Positions 52 through 63,166 of a stretch of DNA of 64,000 bases are shown here, in pieces. The stretch spans positions 1 through 64,000 of the IMG/VR virus record IMGVR_UViG_3300011947_000002. The stretch is one strand, 5' to 3'. The notes below the pieces were generated by a model. It had not been told where the DNA came from. It did not search any database and saw only the letters and a program-made list of their open reading frames with translations. The translations under genes and the position numbers were made by a program. Within the stretch, counting starts at the first letter, position 1. Each line of letters begins with the position of its first letter. Source of the DNA: a virus (taxonomy: Duplodnaviria > Heunggongvirae > Uroviricota > Caudoviricetes).

Positions 52-405
52 ATGAACCAATATGAAGAATTTATGTATAAGTTAGGCTTTAAGATTGCTA
101 AAGGTCGGCCGTATGCAAACTATTCTACGTTTGACGTTTTTACTGGCGATCCAACTTATATCATTAATTGTGTTAATTTAATCGATTATAATGATATCGG
201 TCGCTGTTTATTCCGTTTTAAATCTGCTGAATATTTCGATCGGTTTGTTGATGTTGAAGATTTATCAGAAGAATATGTTAAGAAAATGTTCATGGAATAT
301 GTTAAGCATATTCGACTTATGTATTCCAATCTTCAACAGCATGATAAATCGCTGATTGATGCATTTGAAGATAACTGTGAAATATATGATGGAGATGTTG
401 AATAA
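52..405 (+). CDS. hypothetical early protein (117 aa)
   Basis: Intact ORF with GGATGA RBS-like motif upstream. An upstream ORF tail ends at ~42. The stop overlaps the next start (ATGA). Confidence 0.5.
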   Translation: MNQYEEFMYKLGFKIAKGRPYANYSTFDVFTGDPTYIINCVNLIDYNDIGRCLFRFKSAEYFDRFVDVEDLSEEYVKKMFMEYVKHIRLMYSNLQQHDKSLIDAFEDNCEIYDGDVE

Positions 406-926
406 TGAGAAGTACACTTCGTCTTGATATGGAATGTGCAATAACATCACTTCCAAAAAATAAATTGATGGATGTTGAGGTGGCGGCCAATCTCCATAAT
501 AACTTTGTATCATTAGATTATTTCAGTGAAAATGGGTTGTATGCATTAAAACAATTGCTACCCGATGATAGCCTTGTAAAGTCTTTATTATCTGATCGAT
601 ATAACTGTGTATATTCCACTGAAATGCTTGGTACTCAATTCTTTCGGGCTGTTCCAGATATAATTTTGACGGATGATGTTGGAAAGTATTTCGATAAATT
701 TCCAGATAATCCACGGGTTAAAATGTTTCGCGAAATGGCTTGTGATGATGATTGGAATAAACCAGATTGGAATGATATGAAACCAAGTGCGATCCAGCGT
801 AGTTTCCTTGGTAGTGGATATATTTCTACTGTGTTTAATGGTCATGCTGACGTTTCTCACTTTGCTGTTCCATTAGATAATGGGGATCATCTAATTTGTT
901 ATTTTAATTGCTTCTACCACAAATAA
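405..926 (+). CDS. hypothetical protein (173 aa)
   Basis: Intact ORF, translationally coupled to the previous gene. Confidence 0.5.
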   Translation: MRSTLRLDMECAITSLPKNKLMDVEVAANLHNNFVSLDYFSENGLYALKQLLPDDSLVKSLLSDRYNCVYSTEMLGTQFFRAVPDIILTDDVGKYFDKFPDNPRVKMFREMACDDDWNKPDWNDMKPSAIQRSFLGSGYISTVFNGHADVSHFAVPLDNGDHLICYFNCFYHK

Positions 927-1479: not shown

Positions 1480-1702
1480 TTTAAACCAGTATGTTTATTT
1501 TATTCCAACCGAATATGGTCGTAATATTATGAACAAATACTTTAATTATCGAAATGGGAACCATAAAATCGATGAAGAAACTGGTTATCATTACCTACAA
1601 TTACATGAATTCATGTCTTGTTTTGGTGACGTTAGTTTTACGGGCGGTGATAATTTCGTAGAAGGTTCAAACATATACATTGACGAAAATTATTTGGATT
1701 AA
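1451..1702 (+). CDS. hypothetical protein (83 aa)
   Basis: AAGGCGGTGA SD upstream of the ATG. Overlaps the preceding gene by 29 nt. Confidence 0.45.
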   Translation: MSTKNLKLFNLNQYVYFIPTEYGRNIMNKYFNYRNGNHKIDEETGYHYLQLHEFMSCFGDVSFTGGDNFVEGSNIYIDENYLD

Positions 1703-1704
1703 AG

Positions 1705-2319
1705 ATGAAGCATTCGATCATTGAAGACTTGTTAAAAAATAAATTTGTTTTGCGTAAAACTACAGGTAGTAAGTTTGCAGTCCATTGTTTGGGTGCACAT
1801 ACCGATAAGTATCCTGTTATGATTGATGTATTAAATGATCGAATCTTTATGTATCGTGATCACGCATCATATTATAAATCATTTATGATGAAAGAATATA
1901 ACCTGAATCAGTTTATTAATAATTATTATGATTTACTAGAAATTGATGTTGATGTTGAAATGTTGGTGAGAAGCTTTTATTTCACCCCCATCACTATGCG
2001 ATTTATTCTTAAACATAGTAATCATACAAGTTTAATGAAGTGTCCTGAATACTCTAAAATACGGGAAGTAGTACGTAAATTAAAAGATGATTTTATGACC
2101 TATATTAAATCTATTGTCATAGAAGATACATTTATGAAGAATCCTGATATACCGCAAGAATTCAAATCATTTGTAAAAAACACACCAAATTGGCAATTTT
2201 TGTGCCAGATGCATACCCTGCCACTAGATATGAAGAAGGCGTACTTACAAGAACGCTTATTACGTAGATTTATACAGTTGCAGAAAACACAAGGTATCAC
2301 ATATGAATCAATTACATAA
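1705..2319 (+). CDS. hypothetical protein (204 aa)
   Basis: Intact ORF in the compact early operon. Confidence 0.55.
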   Translation: MKHSIIEDLLKNKFVLRKTTGSKFAVHCLGAHTDKYPVMIDVLNDRIFMYRDHASYYKSFMMKEYNLNQFINNYYDLLEIDVDVEMLVRSFYFTPITMRFILKHSNHTSLMKCPEYSKIREVVRKLKDDFMTYIKSIVIEDTFMKNPDIPQEFKSFVKNTPNWQFLCQMHTLPLDMKKAYLQERLLRRFIQLQKTQGITYESIT

Positions 2320-2902
2320 TACGGTTATTCGCTTATATGAAGAAGGTTTTGAAATCCAGAAGATTTCTGACACTAAATTTTATATTAAACATAAGGAATA
2401 TCCGCTTGCTAAAAAGAAAGTCATTGTTGAATATTTAGGGGATTCTAATTTCATAATGTATCAAGCTTTTGCGAAACGGTTTAGTAATTGGGAATTTAAC
2501 AACCATCCACATTATGTATTTTTACATCATTATAAAAAACGTATTGAATTTGATTCTGATCGAGTTAAAAAGATTATCAATATAAATGCTGCCAGATCAA
2601 CCATGAAGTTGTTTATCAAGCATCGCAATTTTAATTATGATGGTGGTTTTGCAATCAAGACTGAATCACATAAGGGTTTATACAATACTGCTATTAAGGA
2701 TATGGGTGTACTTTTAGAAAAATATCGGTTAAATCCAGACAAATTTATGAGGTCTAAGAATATACCAAATACCATCAAATATGTGTGTAAATCAACCGAT
2801 GGAGATTTTGATAAATTTGTTTATGGTGAAGGTTGGAATGCAAATACACATTACATACATCGTCTAGTGATGGATATTTTAAGTTATGGAGAAAGCTTAT
2901 GA
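2303..2902 (+). CDS. hypothetical protein (199 aa)
   Basis: Intact ORF. Confidence 0.5.
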   Translation: MNQLHNTVIRLYEEGFEIQKISDTKFYIKHKEYPLAKKKVIVEYLGDSNFIMYQAFAKRFSNWEFNNHPHYVFLHHYKKRIEFDSDRVKKIININAARSTMKLFIKHRNFNYDGGFAIKTESHKGLYNTAIKDMGVLLEKYRLNPDKFMRSKNIPNTIKYVCKSTDGDFDKFVYGEGWNANTHYIHRLVMDILSYGESL

Positions 2903-3711
2903 CCGGAAATAAAGAAACCAAATTTAAGTTTAAAAAAGGCAAAGAATACAATATTAATGTAGATGTTGTTATTTTAGACTCATGGGGTGATGAATGGGAA
3001 TGGAATAAGGTGTATACAGGCATACATCCTGAATATGGCTGTTATGAATTTATTGATGCTTATGGACATGAATCCAGTTTATTTGATGATGAAATTATAT
3101 CTTACAACGAACCTGTATCTGCTACCGAAATGTTCCAGATGCATACAAATTATATGAACTTCTATCGTAAAGGCCCATTTCAAGATTTACGATATGCGCA
3201 AGAATTGCGTCAGAAGATCGTTAATACCTTGAAAGAGCGTCGATATGTAATTCATGGCGCAGGAAAATTTGAACCTTTTGATTATAAGCTAATGTACGCT
3301 ATCAGAAACGATATTGATTCTGGCTTATATCAATTTGAAGTTGGTAGTACATATACACTTCAGAATGGCGAATCAATTACGATTATTGCTAGGGATAATT
3401 ATAGGGTTTTGGGTTCCGATAATATTTGGAGATATGATACGTGTAATGAACAATACAGGTTGAATTTACGTCATGGATTGTGTGTTAATACATCATGGGA
3501 ATTCCTTGATGGCCGTAATATAATCAATGCAGAACTTGGTAATCGGTTTGAATTGATTCAGGAATTTAAGGCTGAATATGGTTATAGTGATCCAGATATT
3601 AAATTAATTGGTAACACAACAAGAATTAATGAAGTATATGATGATTACTTTAAGTTTTTAAAAAGTAAAAAGCTTAAAAACGTAAATCCATATTTCGATC
3701 TTTATATTTGA
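2899..3711 (+). CDS. hypothetical protein (270 aa, start at MTGNKETKF)
   Basis: GGAGAAAGCTT-ATG RBS. The six-frame ORF extends upstream to 2833, but that ATG lies inside the previous gene. Confidence 0.5.
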   Translation: MTGNKETKFKFKKGKEYNINVDVVILDSWGDEWEWNKVYTGIHPEYGCYEFIDAYGHESSLFDDEIISYNEPVSATEMFQMHTNYMNFYRKGPFQDLRYAQELRQKIVNTLKERRYVIHGAGKFEPFDYKLMYAIRNDIDSGLYQFEVGSTYTLQNGESITIIARDNYRVLGSDNIWRYDTCNEQYRLNLRHGLCVNTSWEFLDGRNIINAELGNRFELIQEFKAEYGYSDPDIKLIGNTTRINEVYDDYFKFLKSKKLKNVNPYFDLYI

Positions 3712-3717
3712 TCATAT

Positions 3718-3746
3718 TTGCATATTTCTTAATCTGTGTGTACAAT
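3718..3746 (+). promoter_or_regulatory. sigma70-like promoter TTGCAT-17-TACAAT
   Basis: -35 TTGCAT 3718-3723, 17-nt spacer, -10 TACAAT 3741-3746, ahead of the 3791 gene. Confidence 0.45.
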
Positions 3747-3790
3747 AACCTTATTGAGAAATATGCAGGTATTCTAAAAGGTGATTTAAT

Positions 3791-4114
3791 ATGTTTAGTA
3801 AGTTATTTGCTGCTTCTGAACCATTAGTAATCCACATCACTAATAATTTCACGCCTAAAGTGTTTGGGATGATTAGTTATGCTTGTGATCATGGGGGTTG
3901 GATCAAGTTTGATATTCTTGAATATAACGATGATGAAATGTCAGAATTTCTATTGTTGTCTTCTGTTACTGGTTATATCAAAGTCGATTTCAAAAAAGAT
4001 CGATATCGCATCACGCCAAAAGGCAAAGAATTCGTTGAACTGATCCGAATGTTGCGTGGTATGTCGGATGCATCAATCGATAATTTCGTAAAGCTAATAA
4101 AATCTGGAAAATGA
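3791..4114 (+). CDS. hypothetical protein (107 aa)
   Basis: AAAGGTGA SD 7 nt upstream. Confidence 0.55.
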   Translation: MFSKLFAASEPLVIHITNNFTPKVFGMISYACDHGGWIKFDILEYNDDEMSEFLLLSSVTGYIKVDFKKDRYRITPKGKEFVELIRMLRGMSDASIDNFVKLIKSGK

Positions 4115-4115
4115 T

Positions 4116-4790
4116 ATGTCAAACATTACAACATTAGTTTTATCATCACTTCGAAATTGTATGTGTAAGGCCGCTTTAATAAAATACAATCCAGATATTC
4201 ATCCAATAATATTTTTGATTAATTTGCAATTGGAATTGAAGCGTATCAATATGAATTATCTACCATTTGATGAATTGGTTAGTGTTTTGTATTGTGATGA
4301 TATTAATGATTTCTGGCATGTAATAGCGAAAGGGGGAAGAAATTTAGTCACTTTACCATTAGGATATGATGGAACCAGTCACACCCTAATGTTTGTTAAT
4401 ACTATGATGCCAACTGGTAATATTAACATAATTGATTTGCGTGATTGCAAGATGCCTGAATTCACTTGTTATACCAAGAATGGAAAGGCATGTATTCGTG
4501 TGGATGAAATCGATCTGATTGATGATAAAACAGATGCCGATATTTTAACCAGCTATCACAGATCATTATTTGAAAAATACAAACAAGAGCGTGAAACAGC
4601 TATAAAGTCAAAAAATCGAAATGATTATTCAAAGGTACAATTGTCAATTCGAAAAGAATATTATGAAAAATTGGATGTTGTGAAAGAAATTCCAGATGGT
4701 GTTGAATTCACTATTAATGAAGATAAATTTATTAAAGGTATCCCTGTAACTGAACGAATGTTAGTTGATACATTCTGGTTTCCAGAGTAA
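4116..4790 (+). CDS. hypothetical protein (224 aa)
   Basis: Intact ORF immediately after the previous stop. Confidence 0.55.
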   Translation: MSNITTLVLSSLRNCMCKAALIKYNPDIHPIIFLINLQLELKRINMNYLPFDELVSVLYCDDINDFWHVIAKGGRNLVTLPLGYDGTSHTLMFVNTMMPTGNINIIDLRDCKMPEFTCYTKNGKACIRVDEIDLIDDKTDADILTSYHRSLFEKYKQERETAIKSKNRNDYSKVQLSIRKEYYEKLDVVKEIPDGVEFTINEDKFIKGIPVTERMLVDTFWFPE

Positions 4791-4802
4791 AGGAAAATAA
4801 AA

Positions 4803-4952
4803 ATGCAAATTGAACAGAACTATGTTGATGAACGTAAACGCCAGCGTGATAAGCGTTTAAATAATCAGAAGTCATCAAAATACGATTATGAAGATGCTTT
4901 ATACGATAATCAGATTGCGAATAATCGCAAAAAGAAAAAGCAGCAGAAATAA
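4803..4952 (+). CDS. small highly basic protein (49 aa, MQIEQNYVDERKRQRDKRLNNQK...)
   Basis: Not in the supplied track (<60 aa). AAGGAAAATAAAA-ATG RBS. Followed by a terminator at 5010-5038. Confidence 0.35.
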   Translation: MQIEQNYVDERKRQRDKRLNNQKSSKYDYEDALYDNQIANNRKKKKQQK

Positions 4953-5009
4953 TCCTGAAAAGATGGATTGTGATTTAATTAAAGAAGACAAATAAACATT
5001 TTCAAAACA

Positions 5010-5038
5010 AAGGGAACCTTCAGGTTCCCTTTTCTTAT
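5010..5038 (+). terminator. rho-independent terminator
   Basis: GGGAACC-TTCA-GGTTCCC hairpin followed by TTTTCTTATTT. Confidence 0.7.
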
Positions 5039-5124
5039 TTGTACACACACGATATATCTTTACCAAATATGAACATAAATATAAAATCATCCAGTGCAAA
5101 TAAGATTTGGGATAATTGATTAAA

Positions 5125-7047
5125 ATGAGATTTTACACGTCCGTAAACAGACAAGGTTCTGTGATTTGTCATCGCTATATTGAAGATGGCAAACGACATT
5201 CTGAAATCATTAAAACTTATAATTATGACCTGTTTATTAAATCTGAATATTCAAAAGATAGTTATAACATCCATAAGGAACCATTAAAACAATATACATT
5301 TGATGATATTAATTCAATGGCTGAATTTGTTAAATCAAATGGTAAACATAATGTTTATGGAAATGTTGATCCTGTAGCACAGTTTATTGCTAAAGAATAT
5401 CCAAAACCAATGGCGCTGACTAACCATTATGTCACGTTGAATTTCGATATTGAGGTCGTCCACGGCGGCGGCAAGATCAAATATAAAGATTACCATGAAA
5501 TTAAAGTTCTTCTAAACGACGAAGAAAAATTGATGTCTTTATTCGAATATCGAAAGATTGACTTGAATACGAATACAGCATTGGTGTGGGATATCGAAAA
5601 AGAACAATATATAGATTTTGAAGATTCATGTTTCGCGCCATTATCATTGGGTTTCCCTGATCCAAATCTGGCCTTATATGAGGTCATGACTATCTCTGTG
5701 ATTTCTTCAGTTGAAGATAAAATCTATGTGTTTGGTACAAAGCAGTTTTCAGGTGAACGTACTATTCCAGATAGCAAATATTCAATCGTACACGTCGAGT
5801 GTGGTGGTGAAAAAGAATTATTAATTAGATTCATCCAAAAGTGGCGGGAAATCAATCCAGATATCGTGACTGGTTATAATGTATTAGGGTTCGATATTCC
5901 CTACCTAGTAAACCGTATCGTTCGGGTACTGGGTAAAAAGTTCACAAATAAACTTAGTCCTTTTTCAGCATCAGTTCAAAATTGTATTAGAGAGCGTCAA
6001 ACTGATAATGGTGTGGTTTATCAGATTCTAGGCATTACAGTTTTCGATTATCTTGATCTCTATAAAAAGTTTTCACGCACCAATCAGGAAAGCTATAAAC
6101 TTGATTATATTGGTGAGGTTGAAGTAGGTCATAATAAGGTAAGCTTTGATGAATATGATAATTCCCTGATGAAATTATGGGAATATGATTATAATAAATT
6201 TATTCTATATAACGCTATCGATACCCTGATTGTTAATAAACTGGATGATAAACTCAAGTTTATTAGTTTGGCTATCACAATTGCGCATCTAACTAAATCA
6301 GATTTAAATGAAGCTACTGGTACAGTAAAGATTTGGGATAATCTGATCTATAACTTACTACTTCATAAAAACATTCAAATTCCGCCAAATATCAAGCATG
6401 ATGGCGAAGTTGATATTATTGGGGCATATGTTAAAGAACCACTATACGGCCGTCATGGTTGGGTATTAACAAGTGATGCTACATCACTATATCCTATGAT
6501 CATCCGTATGTTTAACATGAGTCCAGAAACATTGGTGCATCGTGAAGTTGGTAACTCAATTTCAACTAAAGATAAGCGAATTATCGAAGTGTTAGAAGAT
6601 AATCTATCGTATGTCGATGGGATGATTCGTCTTCAGCCAGATTTTGGAGATAGTGAAGATATATCTAGTTTTGATATATATGATGAAGATTTTGATGTTG
6701 AAAAATTAGATATGCTATCCAAGCGTGGATTGATGAATCTGAAGACCAAGATCACTAAAGAAATTGATTATATCGCATCAGGCCATGAATATATTAAGGG
6801 TGTAGATAACGTTCTGGATAATATCGATTTGATGATTGATATGAAGAATGATTTATCATTCGCTAAAGAATTAAATGTTACTGTGGCTGGTAATGGTTCC
6901 ACCTATGATAAATCTGAAATTGGGGTGATTCCTGAAGGTATGACGTTCTTATTCAATTATCGGAAGCAGTTGAAAACAGAAATGAATGAAAAGAAACGGC
7001 TTCTACAGATTAAAATTGCTGAACTAGCTGAATTAGAAACGGCGTGA
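5125..7047 (+). CDS. 43: family-B DNA polymerase, N-terminal fragment (T4 gp43-like 3'-5' exonuclease domain + polymerase motif A only)
   Basis: The N-terminus aligns with T4 gp43 (FYTSVNRQGSVICHRYIEDGKRHSE vs FYISIETVGNNIVERYIDENGKERT). Exo I FDIE at ~5443-5454, Exo II YNVLGFDIPYL, shared LDYLDLYKKF, Exo III YNAIDT, and motif A SDATSLYPMII (~6466-6504) are present. The ORF ends ~15 aa after the FNYRKQ segment (T4 FNQRKEHK). Motifs B (KxxxNSxYG) and C (YGDTDS) are absent. True start is ATG 5125, because the supplied ORF began at TTG 5116. Confidence 0.85.
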   Translation: MRFYTSVNRQGSVICHRYIEDGKRHSEIIKTYNYDLFIKSEYSKDSYNIHKEPLKQYTFDDINSMAEFVKSNGKHNVYGNVDPVAQFIAKEYPKPMALTNHYVTLNFDIEVVHGGGKIKYKDYHEIKVLLNDEEKLMSLFEYRKIDLNTNTALVWDIEKEQYIDFEDSCFAPLSLGFPDPNLALYEVMTISVISSVEDKIYVFGTKQFSGERTIPDSKYSIVHVECGGEKELLIRFIQKWREINPDIVTGYNVLGFDIPYLVNRIVRVLGKKFTNKLSPFSASVQNCIRERQTDNGVVYQILGITVFDYLDLYKKFSRTNQESYKLDYIGEVEVGHNKVSFDEYDNSLMKLWEYDYNKFILYNAIDTLIVNKLDDKLKFISLAITIAHLTKSDLNEATGTVKIWDNLIYNLLLHKNIQIPPNIKHDGEVDIIGAYVKEPLYGRHGWVLTSDATSLYPMIIRMFNMSPETLVHREVGNSISTKDKRIIEVLEDNLSYVDGMIRLQPDFGDSEDISSFDIYDEDFDVEKLDMLSKRGLMNLKTKITKEIDYIASGHEYIKGVDNVLDNIDLMIDMKNDLSFAKELNVTVAGNGSTYDKSEIGVIPEGMTFLFNYRKQLKTEMNEKKRLLQIKIAELAELETA

Positions 7048-7050
7048 TGA

Positions 7051-7090
7051 AAAGGGGGATTGCAAATATAAATATTCAATCCCCTTTACA
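7051..7090 (+). terminator. rho-independent terminator directly after the truncated polymerase gene
   Basis: AAAGGGGGATTG ... CAATCCCCTTT inverted repeat with a 14-nt loop. Confidence 0.6.
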
Positions 7091-7093
7091 TAT

Positions 7094-7122
7094 TTGATCA
7101 AATTGTATAGTATAGATAATAT
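7094..7122 (+). promoter_or_regulatory. sigma70-like promoter TTGATC-17-TAATAT
   Basis: -35 7094-7099, -10 7117-7122, upstream of the 7144 gene (SD GGAG). Confidence 0.45.
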
Positions 7123-7602: not shown

Positions 7603-8076
7603 ATGGCTACTGCAATTATTACGATTGGTGCTGTTCTTAGTGGAAAAACCACATTTGCAGAAAATTTACAAGAAAAGGATGATTCTTTTGTAGTCATTTC
7701 GCGCGATGATATTCGTTATAGCCTATTTCCTAATGCTACTAATGATTATAAGTTTACGCCTGATGATGAACAAACAATTACTTCTAGACAGTATGATATG
7801 ATTCGTGAGTGTCACCAGTCGAATAAAAACGTAATTATTCCAAATTCTAATCTTAGAATGGGTCACTTAAAACGGTTTATTCGTATTCTTGAAAATTACA
7901 AGTATGATATCAAAATCAAACTGTGTGAAGAACCAAAGTCTGTGATTTATCGCAAACGTGATTTACTTGGAATTAAAATCACTAATGAACATATTGAACG
8001 CCAGATTTCATTATATAATGAAGTTAAGCAAAAAGTATTAACTGATGATCGTTATAAAAAGTATTTGATACATTGA
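7603..8076 (+). CDS. P-loop polynucleotide 5'-kinase-like protein (T4 Pnk kinase domain only, 157 aa)
   Basis: IITIGAVLSGKTTFAE...ISRDDIRYSLF matches T4 Pnk ILTIGCPGSGKSTWAREF...NINRDDYRQSI. There is no phosphatase domain. Confidence 0.6.
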   Translation: MATAIITIGAVLSGKTTFAENLQEKDDSFVVISRDDIRYSLFPNATNDYKFTPDDEQTITSRQYDMIRECHQSNKNVIIPNSNLRMGHLKRFIRILENYKYDIKIKLCEEPKSVIYRKRDLLGIKITNEHIERQISLYNEVKQKVLTDDRYKKYLIH

Positions 8077-21525: not shown

Positions 21526-23256
21526 ATGGATATAAGTGTTACAGAAATTAAAGATTATATTTCTAAAGCATACAAAGATATCGGTATGATTCCAATCAAC
21601 GGCCAAGATTCAATCGTTGAAAGAATTTTAGTAGATTTCTTCATCAATAAGAAAAGAAATGTTATTGCATCATTAGACACTGGATTTGGTAAATCAGTTA
21701 TTGGGGCTGTTGTTGCAAAAGTATTTTCATACGTAGTTGAAGAAGATTCTGAAGATCGTGTATATCCATCTATGATTGTTGTACATAGTAATTCGCTTGT
21801 AAAACAATATGGAGAAACTTTTAATAAATTCAATCCTACTGAATTTCATCAAATCATCGGGGCTAATAACTATCACTGCGAAGCTGCCACGGCACTATCT
21901 AAAGAAGGTGAAGTATTAAATGCTGAAGATTGTTTTGAAAGTATTGCTGATGAACAAATCAAAAAGAAATACTGCATGGACTGTGAATATAAACGTGCGA
22001 AATCATTTGTTAATAACACTGACTGTCTAATCACGAACTATAGTTATCATTTCATTAGTCGTATGGTTTCCAATCATGTAGCCAAACGCAAGATTATGAT
22101 TTTTGATGAAGCACATAATGTGAATGAAGTATTTTGTGATCATAATTCTGTTCACGTTTCACAAGAAAAATTAGAAAAGTATATTGATGAAACTAAGCTT
22201 TATTTTGCGGTTGAAACTAAATCTCAACGTAAAGTATTGCGCGACATCCGTGACCAACTAGAGAATAAAGAAATACGCGAATCCAACTACGTTAATTCAT
22301 TGCGGGATTTAATGAATGCTTATCGTGGTATTTCTAAAATATTTAAAGATAAAAATACAGATAAATCAGATATTGAAAAATATATGAAATTAAATCGTAT
22401 TATGAAGAAATATGATGATCTTGCATCAAAGATTAATGATTTATTTATTTTTAAGTATGATCATGCATTTGATGGGTATGATCCAGAAAATAAAAATCAT
22501 TATGGTGACAAATACCCACGTGAATTCACAATAAAACCAATTTTTGTGGGTTCTATGTCAGATAAAATCATGAGTGAATATAATCTATTCATGAGTGCAA
22601 CTATTTCTGATGAATTTATGGTTACAACGATGGGGTTGAAGCCAGAAGAAACATCATTTATTAAATTGCCACCTATTTATGATCCAGAAAACAAAACGAT
22701 TGTTTTTTCTGGTGCACATAAGTTGAACTTTGCAGCAATGAAAGATCAGGCCGTATTGAATGATCTGTGTGAAACAGTTAAGACGATTCTGGATGATGCG
22801 CATAATGATAATTATAAAGGTTTAATCTTAACGCCTTCATTTGATGTAACTGAAATGATTGCGAATATTGTTCCGCGCCATACTAAAATATTTCAACATA
22901 AACGTGGAACTAAAATTGATCCATTGATCCAGCAATTTAAATCATATACGGGTGGTTCCGCTGTATTAATATCACCTTCAATTTATGAAGGTTTGGATTT
23001 TAAGGATGATTTTTCACGGTTCCAAATTATTTTTAAAGCGCCTTATCCATCACTGGGTGATAAGCGTATGAAATATATCGCAAGTAATTATCCGAAGGTT
23101 TACCGCATCATGACATTGATGAAAATTGTACAAGGTGTTGGGCGTTCTGTACGTAATAAGGATGATTGGGCAATCACGTTCATGCTTGATAAAAATGCTG
23201 AAGAATTATTTAATTCTAATTTGAATGTTTGGTATGATCAATTTAATGTGATATAA
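21526..23256 (+). CDS. DinG/XPD(Rad3)-family superfamily-2 helicase with Fe-S cluster domain (576 aa)
   Basis: Walker A LDTGFGKS, DEAH box IFDEAHN, four-Cys cluster C-x8-C ... C-x2-C (CEAATALSKEGEVLNAEDC...CMDC) between the motifs. Confidence 0.7.
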   Translation: MDISVTEIKDYISKAYKDIGMIPINGQDSIVERILVDFFINKKRNVIASLDTGFGKSVIGAVVAKVFSYVVEEDSEDRVYPSMIVVHSNSLVKQYGETFNKFNPTEFHQIIGANNYHCEAATALSKEGEVLNAEDCFESIADEQIKKKYCMDCEYKRAKSFVNNTDCLITNYSYHFISRMVSNHVAKRKIMIFDEAHNVNEVFCDHNSVHVSQEKLEKYIDETKLYFAVETKSQRKVLRDIRDQLENKEIRESNYVNSLRDLMNAYRGISKIFKDKNTDKSDIEKYMKLNRIMKKYDDLASKINDLFIFKYDHAFDGYDPENKNHYGDKYPREFTIKPIFVGSMSDKIMSEYNLFMSATISDEFMVTTMGLKPEETSFIKLPPIYDPENKTIVFSGAHKLNFAAMKDQAVLNDLCETVKTILDDAHNDNYKGLILTPSFDVTEMIANIVPRHTKIFQHKRGTKIDPLIQQFKSYTGGSAVLISPSIYEGLDFKDDFSRFQIIFKAPYPSLGDKRMKYIASNYPKVYRIMTLMKIVQGVGRSVRNKDDWAITFMLDKNAEELFNSNLNVWYDQFNVI

Positions 23257-40509: not shown

Positions 40510-41328
40510 TTAATTAAGAAATATTGTGGAAGCTTTTTCAGTTAAAGTGCCACCACATTTGATAGTCCCTGATGAACCAACTTTATTAGTCCAAGATGCT
40601 TTTGTGGTGTTGCTATATGCATTACATGTAATTGTATAATTGCCCTTAATATTACTAACCTTATTTCCTTTAATTGTTTCAGTTAAATTACCATCCACAT
40701 TTAAATTAACATTTCCTTTTACGTATATGTTTAAATCCTTATGGACAATTTGGTATCCAAAACCTTTAACATGATTAACATATGATCCATCAGGATGAAA
40801 TTCAACAAAAGTTCCTGATTTATGATATATATGTAAACGTTCAACCCCACTTGTATCGTCAATCTCAACTATATGACCAGCAGGTGTTTGCATTACTTTA
40901 TTATATGGATATTTTGGCGCTGCACCTGAAGCTTTTTCAGCCCAAGTTCCTGCATTTTCTTGTGTTTTCTTAACAACACTACCACGTGCCAATTTATTCA
41001 CATCAATTTCATTTTCTGTCATAGACGGATATGAGGATGTAATAGCTGGCATCTGTGCTGATTTACCATCTAAAAAGTGTCCCTTCACCACTGATCCAAC
41101 AATAAGACAATGTGGTGTAAATCCAATCCCCTTCACATTCGCACTAAATGGTGATGAATCTACAAAAGCCCAAGGTAATGCATTTGTAGGTACAGCATTC
41201 TTATCTTCGCTATGATACCCTTTAATTCGAACGCGAACTCTACCCATTTCAAGCGGATCAAAAATGTCTTCGACAACACCAATGAACCAGACATATTCCC
41301 CTAATGAAAAATGATTATTACGTTCCAT
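40510..41328 (-). CDS. 5: baseplate central spike/hub protein, T4 gp5-like N-terminal OB-fold domain without lysozyme domain (272 aa)
   Basis: WFIGVVEDIFDPLEMGRVRVRI vs T4 gp5 WFVGVVEDVMDPSLIGRVRVRV. C-terminal HIVEIDDTSGVERLHIYHKSGTFVEFHPDGS and G-N/V-x repeats suggest a short beta-helix. Confidence 0.7.
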   Translation of the reverse strand: MERNNHFSLGEYVWFIGVVEDIFDPLEMGRVRVRIKGYHSEDKNAVPTNALPWAFVDSSPFSANVKGIGFTPHCLIVGSVVKGHFLDGKSAQMPAITSSYPSMTENEIDVNKLARGSVVKKTQENAGTWAEKASGAAPKYPYNKVMQTPAGHIVEIDDTSGVERLHIYHKSGTFVEFHPDGSYVNHVKGFGYQIVHKDLNIYVKGNVNLNVDGNLTETIKGNKVSNIKGNYTITCNAYSNTTKASWTNKVGSSGTIKCGGTLTEKASTIFLN

Positions 41329-41333
41329 TATTA

Positions 41334-42533
41334 TTATTCACCTTCAACACGAATTTTTACGAACTCATAGTTATTTACGTACATTGACGGCGTGATATGA
41401 TGAACCACCGATGTAATTAAATAATATCCACGACGAAATATAGAATAAAAATCACCTTTAGTTTCATTATTAGATGGCATTTCAATATATATATGTTTAC
41501 CCAACCATTTATATGTACCCACACTACCACGTAATTGAGCAGAAAATTTTTCGCTGTCTAATCGTTGTAAAATTGCACGGCGTGATGGCAACCACTTATC
41601 AGCATCATTATACATGTTTTCTCCATCATATAATTTTGCATTTTTTGGAACAAATGATATTGCAGAGGATTCGGCATTATTGAATAATGCATCTTTCCAT
41701 TGCGGGGCAATCTTTGCATCTTCCTTACTATCATCACCATGTGAATAAATAGATTCACCCCATGATTTATTAAAAAAGTCAAATGTTGTTACAGTAGACT
41801 TATAATAACCATTTTGTAAATTTTGCTGAACATCTACATGTTCCCACATATGCTTAATAATATTATAATGATTAATATCCCCAGTATTTTCTACTTTATA
41901 AGTAATAATTTCCCCAATTTCATTTTTTGAATCACTATACATAGATTCAATTGTTTCTAATGTTAATTCATCATGATCACTTTGAAAAAACATAAAGTCA
42001 GCACGACCATCTTTATGCGCTTGTTTCATTAACCAAGCAATTGAAATAAATGGCGACCAATTACTAATTAATAAATCATTTGAATTATCAGATTCAGAAG
42101 CAATATTTACAGTCATTTCAGGAAAGGATTTGGTAGTTACTTCCCTAATTACATCAGAAACTTTTTGTGTTTTAAATTTCTCATTAATTCGAATGGTATT
42201 ATTCAATAAAAATTGTTTGGCAACGCCATGCAATTTATACGTTTCTACATTTTGGTTTTGGGATAATTTTTCTGCAATTTTGTATATATAAAAAGTAAAC
42301 TCAACATCATCATCTGTTGAACAATTATCTTCAGTTGCTACATTAATTTTTAATTCTGATCCATGTTGAATAGGTAATTCTTCCAACATATTTGTACCAT
42401 CAATAATCCCAATATCACAAGACCATGACATGGAATCTAACGATTGATATATATTAATTGCATGCCATGAATCATTTATTGACACACCATCAATAGAAAC
42501 ATTTATCTTTTTAAACGTTCTATCACCAGACAT
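41334..42533 (-). CDS. baseplate hub subunit, gp27-like (399 aa)
   Basis: Size and position immediately upstream of the gp5-like gene. Weak recollected similarity to T4 gp27 N-terminal segments. Confidence 0.45.
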   Translation of the reverse strand: MSGDRTFKKINVSIDGVSINDSWHAINIYQSLDSMSWSCDIGIIDGTNMLEELPIQHGSELKINVATEDNCSTDDDVEFTFYIYKIAEKLSQNQNVETYKLHGVAKQFLLNNTIRINEKFKTQKVSDVIREVTTKSFPEMTVNIASESDNSNDLLISNWSPFISIAWLMKQAHKDGRADFMFFQSDHDELTLETIESMYSDSKNEIGEIITYKVENTGDINHYNIIKHMWEHVDVQQNLQNGYYKSTVTTFDFFNKSWGESIYSHGDDSKEDAKIAPQWKDALFNNAESSAISFVPKNAKLYDGENMYNDADKWLPSRRAILQRLDSEKFSAQLRGSVGTYKWLGKHIYIEMPSNNETKGDFYSIFRRGYYLITSVVHHITPSMYVNNYEFVKIRVEGE

Positions 42534-42545
42534 AATTAACCTCTT

Positions 42546-43064
42546 TTATTTTAGCATCTTTTTATACATTTCAACAAATTTTGAAATATTCTGTTTTGGT
42601 ATAATAGTAATTACATTTCTATTTTCATTAATCGTTTGTTCATGTTCAAAATAATTAACACCATCTATATTTTCAGGTAATATTTGATTATTTCTAATCA
42701 TTTCAAAAAAACGATCGGCATCTTCACCTGTAATAACTTGCTTGGTTGATCTATCCATAAAATAGATAACATTATACATTTTGTCTTCTCCATATTTATC
42801 TTTGCAGAAATCATATAATTGATCCGAAGTCATATACCATTCAGTAAATGGATCAATAATGTTATTCACAAATAGGATAGTCCAGAATAATTTAGCATCA
42901 CCATAAACTTCATAAGCAATCTGTTCAGGTGTTCTTGAATCAACCCTAATAGATTGTAATAATGTTTTATCTCTATTAAGGATCAAATTAGTTTTAGTTA
43001 AATTAGTCATTCGATGGATTTCCCCATCGATTGAATAATCTATTTCTTTATGGTACTTAAACAT
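42546..43064 (-). CDS. baseplate wedge protein, gp53-like (172 aa)
   Basis: PEQIAYEVYGDAKLFWTILFVNNIIDP vs T4 gp53 PEELANAIYGNPQLYWVLLMCNDNYDP (LysM-like segment). Confidence 0.5.
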   Translation of the reverse strand: MFKYHKEIDYSIDGEIHRMTNLTKTNLILNRDKTLLQSIRVDSRTPEQIAYEVYGDAKLFWTILFVNNIIDPFTEWYMTSDQLYDFCKDKYGEDKMYNVIYFMDRSTKQVITGEDADRFFEMIRNNQILPENIDGVNYFEHEQTINENRNVITIIPKQNISKFVEMYKKMLK

Positions 43065-44257
43065 TATGATCTTTGTCCTCTAGAATCTTTCAGCAATATA
43101 TCTTTTTTAGTGATAATATCAACTTCAGTCCATTTTGTATCAATACGAATAATATTTGGAAATCCATTTCGAATTGATGACCAATGCCCCATAGGTGCAT
43201 AATCAATATTAACATCCGTACATACAGCACGTTTGAAGTTATTTAACCACTTGTTAGCACCACTTTCCCACATATAAGTAATTTGACATTCATCAGGATA
43301 AGTAAAGAACATTTTATCACCTGCAAAATCTGGTGATGAATGGGCGCGAAATGCTGTAATAATATTATAAATAAGGTCGCAGTCTGATTCGCTGAATGGG
43401 ACTAGATCAAACACAAAGTTAAATGAACGAAAGTTTACTCCACGGAATAACATCGTGCGGAATGGATTTAATGCTTTTCCATTTACAGCCCCCATGATGT
43501 CTTCTGCATCTAATTGATTACCCCCAGTTTTACTAATCAATTCTGACATACCAGAATAAAACGCAACAGATTTCATTCGTTCAGCCATAGAGTTTAAATG
43601 TGATTTAACACTATCTTCATTATAGCCTGTTGACTTCATAGCGGATAAGCTTTTAACAACAGTATCACCAATCATTCCAAAATCTTTCTGATCCCATGAT
43701 ACAGAATTTGGATTTGAAACGTTGTTTGGCATAGGCAAGTTGATTGATGTTGTTTTAGTATTAGTATTGCGGTCATAAAATTGAAAGTTAATATGTGCCG
43801 GATTTAATGCCACGTTTTTAAGAGTTTCTGGATAAGTTAATCCCATAGATTTAGAACCACCAGCACCACCTAATAATGCCCCAATTGCAGGTATAATTGC
43901 AGCAGCACCAGCGCCAATCCCAGCACCAATAACACCTCCAATCCCTCCACCTTGAAGATCATCCATTGTGTTTTTAATATCACCATATATTGCCACACCA
44001 GCCACGCCAGCAGCGACTACACCAGCCCCAATAGCTTTAGCTTGACCAATTGCCTTGGTTACATCTTGTGTGGCTTCAGCGACCTCTCCAATAGCTTTAC
44101 TAGCTGCTTCTTTGGCGCTATTTACTTGTGTGGCCGCTTTATTGACTGCACCACTTGCACTATCAATAGATTTACTAACTTTATTGCCAGCACTTGTGTT
44201 TTTAAGCACAGCCCCGACACCTGCTTGAACAACCTTCAAGCCTAATTTAGCAGACAT
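43064..44257 (-). CDS. gp19-fold baseplate/tail-tube protein (gp48/gp54 family) with Gly/Ala-rich N-terminal region (397 aa)
   Basis: Start moved to MSAKLGL (GGATTTATAACC-ATG). N-terminal GAGVVAAGVAGVAIYG/GGGIGGVIGAGIGAGAAAIIPAIGALLGGAGG. C-terminal domain HINFQFYDRN...FRGVNFRSFNFVFDLVPF follows the gp19/48/54 NLFQVEI-type pattern. Confidence 0.5.
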   Translation of the reverse strand: MSAKLGLKVVQAGVGAVLKNTSAGNKVSKSIDSASGAVNKAATQVNSAKEAASKAIGEVAEATQDVTKAIGQAKAIGAGVVAAGVAGVAIYGDIKNTMDDLQGGGIGGVIGAGIGAGAAAIIPAIGALLGGAGGSKSMGLTYPETLKNVALNPAHINFQFYDRNTNTKTTSINLPMPNNVSNPNSVSWDQKDFGMIGDTVVKSLSAMKSTGYNEDSVKSHLNSMAERMKSVAFYSGMSELISKTGGNQLDAEDIMGAVNGKALNPFRTMLFRGVNFRSFNFVFDLVPFSESDCDLIYNIITAFRAHSSPDFAGDKMFFTYPDECQITYMWESGANKWLNNFKRAVCTDVNIDYAPMGHWSSIRNGFPNIIRIDTKWTEVDIITKKDILLKDSRGQRS

Positions 44258-44314
44258 GGTTATAAATCCTTTATTTTTATTTGTATTTAAATACAAATAA
44301 AACGGTATAGATTT

Positions 44315-44776
44315 ATGGCTAGAAGATATCCAGAAGTTAAAAGTTTTTATCCAAAAAATCCACACAAATATGCTGGTGATGTAAATAATATTAAATTGCG
44401 TTCATCATGGGAATTTAAATTCGCACATTATTGTGATGATAATCCAAGTGTAATCCAATGGAATTCTGAAGATATTATCGTCCCTTATTGGTCGAGTTCG
44501 GATAATAAGATGCGTAATTATCATTTAGATTTCACAATGGTTGTTCAAGAACCAGATGGATCAACAAAAACTTGGATGGTTGAAATTAAACCATATAGTC
44601 AAACAATAAAGCCAGTTAAAACAAGAGGAAAAAAGGAATTAACTTATTTAAATGAATTAAAAACATATCAGGTTAATATGGATAAATGGATTCATGCAAA
44701 CCAATATGCAAAAGATCGTGGGTGGCATTTTTTAGTAATTACAGAAAATGAATTATATAATGGTAAACCTAAATGA
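44315..44776 (+). CDS. 4: head completion protein, T4 gp4-like (153 aa)
   Basis: FYPKNPHKYAGDVNNIKLRSSWE vs T4 gp4 YYPKSPHKYIGNVNEIIARSSWE. ...IEVKP motif. Confidence 0.65.
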   Translation: MARRYPEVKSFYPKNPHKYAGDVNNIKLRSSWEFKFAHYCDDNPSVIQWNSEDIIVPYWSSSDNKMRNYHLDFTMVVQEPDGSTKTWMVEIKPYSQTIKPVKTRGKKELTYLNELKTYQVNMDKWIHANQYAKDRGWHFLVITENELYNGKPK

Positions 44777-61529: not shown

Positions 61530-61553
61530 AAGCGCCTTCGGGCGCTTTTTTCT
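61530..61553 (+). terminator. rho-independent terminator
   Basis: AAGCGCC-TTCG-GGCGCTT followed by TTTTTCTT. Confidence 0.75.
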
Positions 61554-61587
61554 TAAATAAAGATAATAAAAATATAAGTTGATTAAA

Positions 61588-62169
61588 ATGAAATTTAAAG
61601 AATTTTTAAATGAAGCACCAGCATTAATTGATGTACCTAATGATCCAGAATTAGCGAATCGTATGTATGAAAAGGATAAAAAGAATAAAAAATCACTGAA
61701 GGACTGGAAGCAAGGTGAATATGAAATTTCAGCCTACCAAGGTAAGAATGAACATCATCTCTACATATTAAAAGAAGAAAAACTTCAATTATTTATTTCA
61801 TTCACAGCGCCAAATGTAAAAGGTTTAGGCCAAATGATTCAAAACAGTTATATCCAGAAAGCAAAGGGTGGTTCTGTAAACACTGAGATGATCATCGATA
61901 TTATCTTTGGTATTATTGATACGTTTAAGTTTGACGGTATTATTTCTGACGATCTACAAAGTGAATTAGGTGGTAAAAAACTTTGGCGGTCAATTATGCA
62001 ATATGGAAGTGATAAGGGTTATAACATTGGTATATATGACAATGTTGAAAATAAGGTAGAACCTAAAGAAAAAGATAAAAAATTTGCATTATGGTATGCG
62101 ATACGTTCCCGTGAAGTGTATGGTAGTGGTCTTGATAAAGCACGTTATCAATTATATGTTAAAAAATAA
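61588..62169 (+). CDS. MKFKEFLNEAP-family protein, copy 2 (193 aa)
   Basis: Paralog of 58679-59272. Start at ATG 61588; the supplied ORF began at TTG 61579. Confidence 0.55.
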   Translation: MKFKEFLNEAPALIDVPNDPELANRMYEKDKKNKKSLKDWKQGEYEISAYQGKNEHHLYILKEEKLQLFISFTAPNVKGLGQMIQNSYIQKAKGGSVNTEMIIDIIFGIIDTFKFDGIISDDLQSELGGKKLWRSIMQYGSDKGYNIGIYDNVENKVEPKEKDKKFALWYAIRSREVYGSGLDKARYQLYVKK

Positions 62170-62309
62170 TTTGACATATAAATACATATTTGATAATCTT
62201 AATATCAAGAAGAAATAAAGTTAATATCCATATTATATGAGGGTTATGGTATGTAACACTATCTACATGGTATTATCCTGAAACACCGACTGTACACCGT
62301 GTGTACCAA

Positions 62310-62338
62310 AAAAGGCAACGATTAGATTGCCTTTTTTA
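62310..62338 (+). terminator. rho-independent terminator
   Basis: AAAGGCAA-CGATTAG-ATTGCCTTTTTTATT. Confidence 0.65.
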
Positions 62339-62351
62339 TTACCTATCAAAT

Positions 62352-62381
62352 TTGCAATTGTATATACATATATGATATGAT
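62352..62381 (+). promoter_or_regulatory. sigma70-like promoter TTGCAA-18-TATGAT
   Basis: Upstream of the 62414 gene. Confidence 0.4.
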
Positions 62382-62413
62382 TAATTATTGAATAAAAATA
62401 TATAGGGTATTAC

Positions 62414-63166
62414 ATGTCTAGTTTATATAAGTTGATTGAGTCAATGGGTATCAAACGCTTTTCTATGGCGTTAGATAATGCACCATCCCATACCGATAAA
62501 ATTAAGTATACTCCACAGCATGCGTTTGAATATTTTGAAGGTAACTATAGATGGAGTATTTCAAATAATAGCTGGGAAATAGATGCAGACGGTCGAGGAA
62601 AAAGTGATGGTGTATTCAGTATCTATGATATTGAATCCGCCGTAAATGCATGGAGTGTAGTGTATCAATATGGTGGCATCGATAATGCATTAGAACTTTT
62701 GAAATCTACTAGACCAAAAACTATATTATATGACAAGTTAACTAAAGCTATCACCCAATGTCGTCAGTTTATAAATGTGAATCGAGATAACATTATTAAG
62801 GAAAGTGAAGCTTTACAGTTCTTAGATAATGGGATGATGGTAGAATATTCCACTGGGGATAATGTATGGCATATACTTAAAAATGATACATGTATAAATG
62901 ATGTACAAACAAAATATCGCTTATTTATAACACCCGATTTATTTGAAATTAATGGTGTTGAATTGAAACGACCATTTCAACCCATTATTGGGGATAGTGG
63001 GTTTGTTATATCTGGTAAATCCAAGAATGGTTATGAGTATGCCTTAATCAACAGTGATGTGGATAAACCATTGCTAGGTATGTGGAAAAATGAACAAGAT
63101 ATTAAAGCAGTTGTGCAACTGCTTGCAACAGAAATGAAAAATGGTATTGTAAATCAAACTGTATAG
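62414..63166 (+). CDS. hypothetical protein (250 aa)
   Basis: Intact ORF. Confidence 0.5.
   Translation: MSSLYKLIESMGIKRFSMALDNAPSHTDKIKYTPQHAFEYFEGNYRWSISNNSWEIDADGRGKSDGVFSIYDIESAVNAWSVVYQYGGIDNALELLKSTRPKTILYDKLTKAITQCRQFINVNRDNIIKESEALQFLDNGMMVEYSTGDNVWHILKNDTCINDVQTKYRLFITPDLFEINGVELKRPFQPIIGDSGFVISGKSKNGYEYALINSDVDKPLLGMWKNEQDIKAVVQLLATEMKNGIVNQTV

Follow-up and report, generated by a model that had tools for sequence, protein, structure and literature searches.

The window analysed here comprises 64,000 nucleotides (positions 1 to 64,000) of the virus record IMGVR_UViG_3300011947_000002 (Caudoviricetes) and carries near its 5' end a gene, here called 43A, for the N-terminal subunit of a split family-B DNA polymerase (PolB) of the T4 gp43 type. 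The encoded polypeptide comprises the N-terminal domain, the three exonuclease motifs Exo I-III, palm motif A, a helical insertion of about 100 amino acids (aa) and the first fingers helix, whereas motif B, motif C and the thumb are absent both from it and from the whole window. A TTG at 5116 would be an alternative start and yield 643 aa, but the ATG given in Table 1 is favoured because homologues begin with M(R)FYT. No near-identical DNA was found among GenBank phages, and exact look-up of the protein with either start codon returned no record. The window probably stems from a giant T4-like phage, since its G+C content is 31% and its relatives are contigs of 300-381 kb.

The motifs Exo I (DxE), Exo II (NxxxFD) and Exo III (YxxxD) are all present, as in T4 gp43-type family-B enzymes, and the exonuclease residues D108, E110, D257, Y362 and D366 were invariant in alignment A3. 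Of the 453 profile positions of Pfam DNA_pol_B (PF00136) only 24-101, the first fifth, were matched. In PHROGs, 43A occupied positions 5-491 of the 856 positions of PHROG 262 (DNA polymerase) and lay end-to-end on PHROG 2062 (positions 2-491 of 502, 4.9e-111). A phmmer search against PDB sequences (1.9e-55) aligned residues 155-471 with residues 103-431 of RB69 gp43 and residues 588-621 with RB69 457-490, R613 corresponding to RB69 R482. This alignment places the C-terminus of 43A at about RB69 residue 509, the finger tip. Pfam, PHROGs, translation and the RB69 alignment thus all agree with the original prediction of an open reading frame (ORF) with a gp43-like exonuclease domain and motif A. 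That the ORF ends before motifs B and C was likewise correct, although the end had been put about 15 residues beyond the segment matching T4 FNQRKEHK, in place of 23.

Table 1. Features of the 43A locus in the window (dN/dS, ratio of nonsynonymous to synonymous substitution rates)
Feature	Coordinates	Strand	Remarks
Terminator-like hairpin of the upstream gene	5009..5032	+	10-bp stem followed by a T-run
21-nt block TTATTTGTACACACACGATAT	5035..5055	+	Lies after the upstream terminator and ahead of the promoter-like site
Sigma-70/T4-early-like promoter candidate (CTTTACC, 17 nt, TAAAAT)	5058..5087	+	Consensus match only
43A, N-terminal subunit of split family-B (gp43-like) DNA polymerase	5125..7047	+	ATG start, 640 aa
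Exo I, NFDIEVV	5440-5460	+	FDIE itself 5443-5454; translation check
3'-5' exonuclease domain core	5650..6111	+	Pfam DNA_pol_B_exo1 (PF03104), 1.5e-20, residues 179-332
Palm motif A, DATSLYP	6475-6495	+	Translation; D451, S454, L455, Y456 and P457 invariant (alignment A3)
Helical insertion of ~100 aa between motif A and fingers	6556..6879	+	Clade-specific; dN/dS 0.12 (rough)
Fingers segment, AGNGSTYDK...FNYRKQLK	6886-6975	+	Translation
First fingers helix, to the C-terminus	6886..7044	+	Deoxynucleoside triphosphate-binding residues R613/K617 conserved; dN/dS 0.046 (rough)
TGA stop at the finger tip	7045-7047	+	23 residues past FNYRKQLK; 28 past R613
Intrinsic-terminator-like hairpin GGGGATTG ... 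CAATCCCC with T-rich tail	7050..7096	+	Hairpin itself about 7050-7088

The second half of the polymerase was sought in the window by three routes. Regular expressions for motif B (KxxxNSxYG), or for DTDS in a polymerase context, gave no hit in the six frames of the 64 kb. With tblastn, two intact relatives (893 and 867 aa) matched the window only with their residues 2-533 and 3-523, and a profile hidden Markov model of the C-terminal halves of 16 intact relatives found no match in the window while its positive controls scored 432-487 bits. All three agree with the earlier statement that no ORF of the window carries KxxxNSxYG or YGDTDS, and the latter two also bear out that the polymerase is not continued downstream in another frame.

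A protein search of Logan, ENA and NCBI assemblies revealed a clade of homologues of about 640 aa with 42-93% identity. All of its 28 independent clusters stop 25-35 residues past the equivalent of R613, with a conserved tail K.LQ.KI.EL..LE., whereas intact relatives run 376-455 residues beyond this position. Comparison of 43A with the 83%-identical gene of the related contig L004 gave a dN/dS of 0.07 overall and of 0.046 over the last 55 codons, values that are rough as dS is near saturation. Gene order around 43A, including the genes downstream, is shared with L004, and four contigs have a hairpin after the stop. For any metagenomic sequence an artefact of sequencing or assembly (frameshift, nonsense error or chimeric join) is conceivable a priori, and nothing else speaks for it; with the shared end, the hairpins, the synteny and no continuation in any frame against it, we regard such an artefact as practically negligible. 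Because the 28 clusters share the end and purifying selection reaches the last codons, the stop is not a sequencing error; to judge from these comparisons, it is genuine and old. Several other clades end at the same finger-tip site (P0035, P0038, P0058, P0082, P0088 and P0103).

Selection on the tail bears on a second alternative as well, according to which 43A is either a remnant in decay or an exonuclease that acts alone, without partner, in proofreading or repair, and the phage replicates by another enzyme. The absence of the second half from the 64 kb would suit such a protein, and so would the N-terminal fragment of T4 gp43, which was solved alone (1noy, 388 residues) and is an active exonuclease. 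On the other hand, residues needed for polymerisation only, D451 of motif A and R613 and K617 of the fingers, are invariant, the last 55 codons are under the constraint given above, a matching second half occurs on the 43A contigs of relatives, and the window revealed no further polymerase. We therefore consider a solitary 43A very unlikely.

The second half occurs in relatives as stand-alone proteins about 395-417 aa long, here called 43B; as a family they formed more than 20 clusters in a search with the 401-aa protein of loci L063 and L064. These proteins carry KIVLNGGYG (motif B) and SSDTDS (motif C). They begin about 25-35 residues ahead of KIVLNGGYG with a heptad-patterned helix lying immediately before motif B, in which I7, L10, I14 and L17 are invariant; a helix at the 43B N-terminus, where the original prediction proposed to look for one complementary to that of 43A, is thus present in relatives. 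From profile alignment A2, the N-terminal pattern of a 43B would be expected to read I..LK.EI..LE..VERLS..EQAVKIVLNGGYG. In two relatives both halves lie on one contig. On JAWVHF010000011.1 (NCBI, 299,728 bp), 43B (P0129) is found at 76,638-77,825 (+) and the 43A homologue (P0019) at 158,168-160,063 (-), so that some 80 kb separate the two halves, which have opposite orientations, with uvsX, dUTPase, regA, gp62, gp44 and gp46 as the neighbours of 43B. On IMGVR_UViG_3300011242_000001 (380,997 bp), 43B at 61,543-62,733 lies upstream of 43A at 73,276-75,192, at a distance of 10.5 kb. The suggestion that a 43B would be encoded elsewhere in the genome accordingly holds for 43A-bearing contigs of two relatives and not within the window itself. 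In L003 and L004 the 10 kb around 43A contained no 43B, and in L068 and L069 the 10 kb around 43B contained no 43A. P0129 complements 43A in two profiles, covering positions 498-852 of PHROG 262 against 5-491 for 43A, and positions 135-327 of PF00136 against 24-101; the 43B proteins of relatives also match PHROG 1918 (positions 15-380 of 382, 1.9e-105).

A scan of metagenome contigs with the 43B alignment returned 10 loci, none of them overlapping the window. A scan of GTDB genome contigs with the alignment of C-terminal halves gave 57 loci; most of these were intact polymerases of 830-870 aa, and the JAWVHF contig was not among them. The genes that flank 43B in relatives (uvsX, gp44/62, regA, gp23) had no counterparts in the window, and synteny could therefore not place 43B relative to it.

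The AlphaFold2 model of 43A reached a mean pLDDT (predicted local distance difference test) of 87 from an alignment of 43 sequences. Its top 50 structural matches in the PDB were all RB69 gp43, with E-values down to 1.3e-32 and query-normalised TM-scores (template modelling scores) of 0.56-0.64, and the fold of the N-terminal domain, exonuclease and palm agrees with that enzyme. The insertion (about residues 480-585) was modelled as helices 481-503, 525-550 and 563-582. At the C-terminal end the model shows a single helix of 39 residues (601-639). The original prediction had put an amphipathic helix of about 17 residues there, for reassociation with the other fragment; a helix is indeed predicted, but instead of an added element it is the natural first helix of the fingers. 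Its tail LLQIKIAELAELE is heptad-patterned, and we propose it as the docking helix for 43B. The sole low-confidence part of the model of 43A alone is the stretch of residues 424-454, the strands surrounding motif A, as would be explained if motif C of 43B completed the palm sheet at this place.

In intact relatives the fingers consist of a first helix (...F..RK..K..M...) and a second helix (...LD..Q.A.K...NSGYG) with a variable loop between them. In the split genes the stop of one and the start of the other take the place of this fingertip loop, and both free ends are heptad-patterned helices. Halves separated in this manner could also be joined after expression, by a split intein as in PolB of Nanoarchaeum equitans or by RNA trans-splicing. 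Inteins are indeed common in the lineage, in 43A of P0027 and P0029, as PF14890 in many 43B proteins and as a block in the terminase region of the window. However, neither an intein nor a HINT domain was detected in 43A by Pfam at E <= 1, and its entire tail aligns with polymerase fingers up to the stop. The 43B proteins begin about 30 residues ahead of motif B as a polymerase helix, with no C-intein and no HN-C/S/T junction; Rfam showed no intron or other RNA family in the whole window, and both genes possess a start, a stop and a hairpin of their own. Joining of the halves thus appears even less probable than a solitary 43A, and the earlier observation that no intein blocks lie at the polymerase break stands for 43A and for the 43B N-termini alike.

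Upstream of 43A, hairpins equivalent to the one at 5009..5032 are found in L004, L005 and L003, and because of this hairpin 43A appears isolated from upstream transcription. The 21-nt block that follows occurs once in the window, against 0 expected; it is identical in L004, where the adjoining proteins are merely 34-85% identical, and is partly retained in L005. It may be a gene-specific regulatory site for 43A. The promoter-like elements were also found in L004. The hairpin 3' of the gene is followed by TTTACATATTTG, its tail being given as TTTACATATTT. In a 71-nt context it folded with -16.6 kcal/mol (z = -2.6; 4 of 200 shuffles folded equally well), and a G+C-rich hairpin with a T-run, differing in sequence, stands at the same position after the stop in L004, L005 and L003. 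A simple terminator scan passed it over, since its loop exceeds 8 nt; the strong terminator announced in the original prediction thus survives as a stable, recurrent hairpin that the strict scan did not accept. With two terminator-like hairpins flanking it and a promoter-like site of its own, 43A looks like a self-contained transcription unit. Within the loop of this hairpin, TATAAATA (7067-7074) corresponds to the T4 late-promoter motif; it was discarded as a chance match, since the motif occurs 16 times in the window against 23 expected and is not enriched.

Further relatives carry the polymerase in three genes. In L063 these are a middle gene (207-599, -), an N-terminal gene (1661-3136, +) and 43B (3316-4521, +), and in L064 the corresponding positions are 210-602 (-), 1663-3945 (+) and 4954-6159 (+). 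The N-terminal piece with exonuclease and motif A has 491 aa, or 760 aa in L064, where it contains an intein. The 43B piece, downstream of it, has 401 aa and comprises motif B, motif C and the thumb. The middle piece of 130 aa corresponds to residues 511-638, approximately, of the window protein, that is, to helical insertion plus first fingers helix; it is encoded on the opposite strand, upstream of the N-terminal gene and behind a gene for an N6/N4 methyltransferase. This middle gene possesses a separate terminator hairpin and shows a dN/dS of 0.10 between L063 and L064. The insertion of 43A aligns with such stand-alone genes, its start being the second break site of the three-piece relatives. 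Stand-alone middle pieces formed several clusters at 50% identity (P0242, P0243, P0244 and P0246).

At several of these breaks free-standing homing endonuclease genes were found. In L103 the order, all on the + strand, is N-terminal gene (2465-3970, 501 aa), endonuclease (3970-5529) and 130-aa middle gene (5545-5937); in L103 and L104 the endonuclease belongs to DUF7487/PHROG 3339 (1.4e-79), and its start overlaps the stop of the N-terminal gene (TAATG). Proteins of this family show weak Vsr and REase matches. A gene of the same family (9e-56) lies directly after the fused 43A of the NCBI contig L003 (11945-13435), and in L064 a PHROG 655 endonuclease gene stands between the N-terminal gene and 43B. 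A further break is seen in the P0033-like clade, where P0158, P0251 (637 aa), P0250 and P0248 (240 aa) begin just ahead of Exo III (KF..YN..D); P0248 extends from Exo III as far as the finger tip, pointing to one more arrangement in several pieces. T4-like polymerase loci in contigs of metagenome-assembled genomes (L016 1988-4053, L049 3-2215, L052 2926-4023) have adjacent split forms, one of them with about 1 kb between the halves.

Taken together, these data make it highly probable that 43A is one subunit of a replicative family-B polymerase made as separate polypeptides, with 43B encoded elsewhere in the genome, the subunits assembling non-covalently and the split having arisen via a homing endonuclease. 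43A, expressed as its own transcription unit between the two terminator-like hairpins, would supply the N-terminal domain, the proofreading exonuclease, motif A, the clade-specific insertion and the first fingers helix. A 43B of about 400 aa would contribute motif B on the second fingers helix, together with motif C, the thumb and a C-terminal ...SLF tail, which, to judge from T4 gp43, is probably the clamp-binding tail. In the assembled enzyme the two fingers helices would pack as their normal antiparallel pair, lacking only the covalent fingertip loop, and the motif C hairpin of 43B would complete the palm sheet around motif A of 43A. Most likely the split goes back to insertion of a free-standing homing endonuclease gene at the finger tip, and genome rearrangement would later have separated the halves. 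We infer that the genome of the window contains a 43B, that the subunits assemble and that the assembly is active.

Four points weigh against this proposal. The 43B of this genome itself was not seen, neither in the 5.1 kb upstream nor in the 57 kb downstream of 43A. Neither side of 43A in the window carries a homing endonuclease gene, and the proposed origin of the split therefore rests on the relatives. The structure model of 43B is of low confidence (pLDDT 61, 7 sequences) and usable for the N-terminal helix only. Finally, the promoter and terminators are putative, being assigned from consensus or folding matches alone.

More tentatively, and with a somewhat less than even chance of being correct, PolB of this lineage of giant T4-like phages may be an obligately multi-gene enzyme, its scattered pieces resulting from repeated endonuclease fracture and unlinking and its assembly being separately regulated. 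The two-gene form (A with the finger-helix module; B) would then stand beside the three-gene form of sister lineages (N-terminal/exonuclease/palm-A; the 130-aa finger-helix module; finger-P/palm-C/thumb). Assembly could be a separately regulated step because 43A has its own putative promoter and terminators. As far as we found, a PolB of three polypeptides is not described in the literature.

The polymerase genes of the 43A lineage are hot spots for mobile elements. Inteins (PF14890) occur in both halves, in 43A of P0027 and P0029, where the insert follows TGWN, and in the 43B proteins P0128, P0130, P0136-P0140 and others (551-575 aa). Elsewhere in the window the large terminase also looks fractured: a Terminase_6N N-terminal piece with a weak HINT match (55594-56364, -) adjoins a 629-aa ORF with Laminin_G_3 (53691-55580, -), and in the ORF at 52979-53719 (-) an intein C-terminal splicing block (PF14890, 2.1e-08) was found just below the Pfam cut-off. 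The surroundings further include a gp5-like baseplate hub, a tail protein, a gp48/54-like tube cap, a DNA helicase (PHROG 2488) and a polynucleotide-kinase-like ATPase (40510-44365, -; 21526-23256, +; 7603-8076, +), while most other ORFs of the window had no PHROG match.

In the light of these arrangements the known fingertip split extends from neighbouring cistrons to unlinked genes, three of them in some relatives, with homing endonuclease genes caught at the breaks. This natural series can serve for testing how essential enzymes break and yet still assemble, and it offers self-associating polymerase fragments of possible use in split-polymerase engineering. Polymerase phylogenies and completeness checks of giant T4-like phages would misjudge such genomes unless both halves are sought.

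Fingertip-split gp43 (43A/43B) is described (Petrov et al. 2006, 2010, cited in PMC3061061 and PMC2988022) for the T4-related Aeromonas phages 44RR2.8t, 25, 31 and 65 and Acinetobacter phage 133. There the A cistron precedes the B cistron at a distance of 2 bp to 3 kb (PMC3061061), and the split subunits of phage 25 co-purify as an active polymerase (PMC2988022). Direct inspection of 44RR2.8t showed gene 43 (498 aa) and gene 43B (391 aa) separated by a 49-nt gap with a hairpin. The window gene resembles this pair in family, in break position (44RR 43A ends 31 residues past the R of QRKSEK, window 43A 28 past the equivalent R), in having no intein, in the hairpin after 43A and in the start of 43B ahead of motif B (391 versus about 395-410 aa); homing endonuclease genes are tied to the break in some T4-related members too. 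With 43A ending at the 44RR break and 43B present on 43A contigs of relatives, the original reading as a 43A/43B-type split is upheld. The differences are that the cistrons of the known phages are adjacent, whereas here no 43B lies within -5/+57 kb and the halves of relatives are 10.5 kb or 80 kb apart, and that window 43A has the extra insertion of about 100 aa and only about 35% identity to 44RR. Both half-families are already catalogued as PHROG 2062 and PHROG 1918, which are annotation clusters and silent on gene linkage. The split itself is therefore of a known kind, given the matching 44RR break, the two PHROGs and the other clades that end at this site. We found no description in the literature of unlinked halves for the T4-type fingertip split, and it is the linkage that is new here.

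Unlinked PolB halves are previously known from two cases. PolB of Methanothermobacter thermautotrophicus assembles, without splicing, from the products of two genes that lie 85 kb from each other (Kelman et al. 1999, cited in PMC3061061). It differs from 43A in being archaeal and in its break, which falls within the palm, about 83 residues on the C-terminal side of the fingertip site (PMC3061061). The PolB halves of N. equitans are unlinked as well, but they are ligated by protein trans-splicing (PMC2677866), whereas no intein parts are found at the break here. An engineered Pfu polymerase is split, like window 43A, between the two fingers helices. Its separately made fragments refold with wild-type kinetics, the C-fragment needing the N-fragment for solubility (PMC3061061), and this reconstitution supports the proposed non-covalent assembly, although the Pfu construct is an artificial, bicistronic form of an archaeal enzyme with a short finger tip. 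In the gene-breaking model (PMC2677866) a homing endonuclease inserts, the endonuclease is lost and the halves uncouple; the arrangements in the window and its relatives fit this succession.

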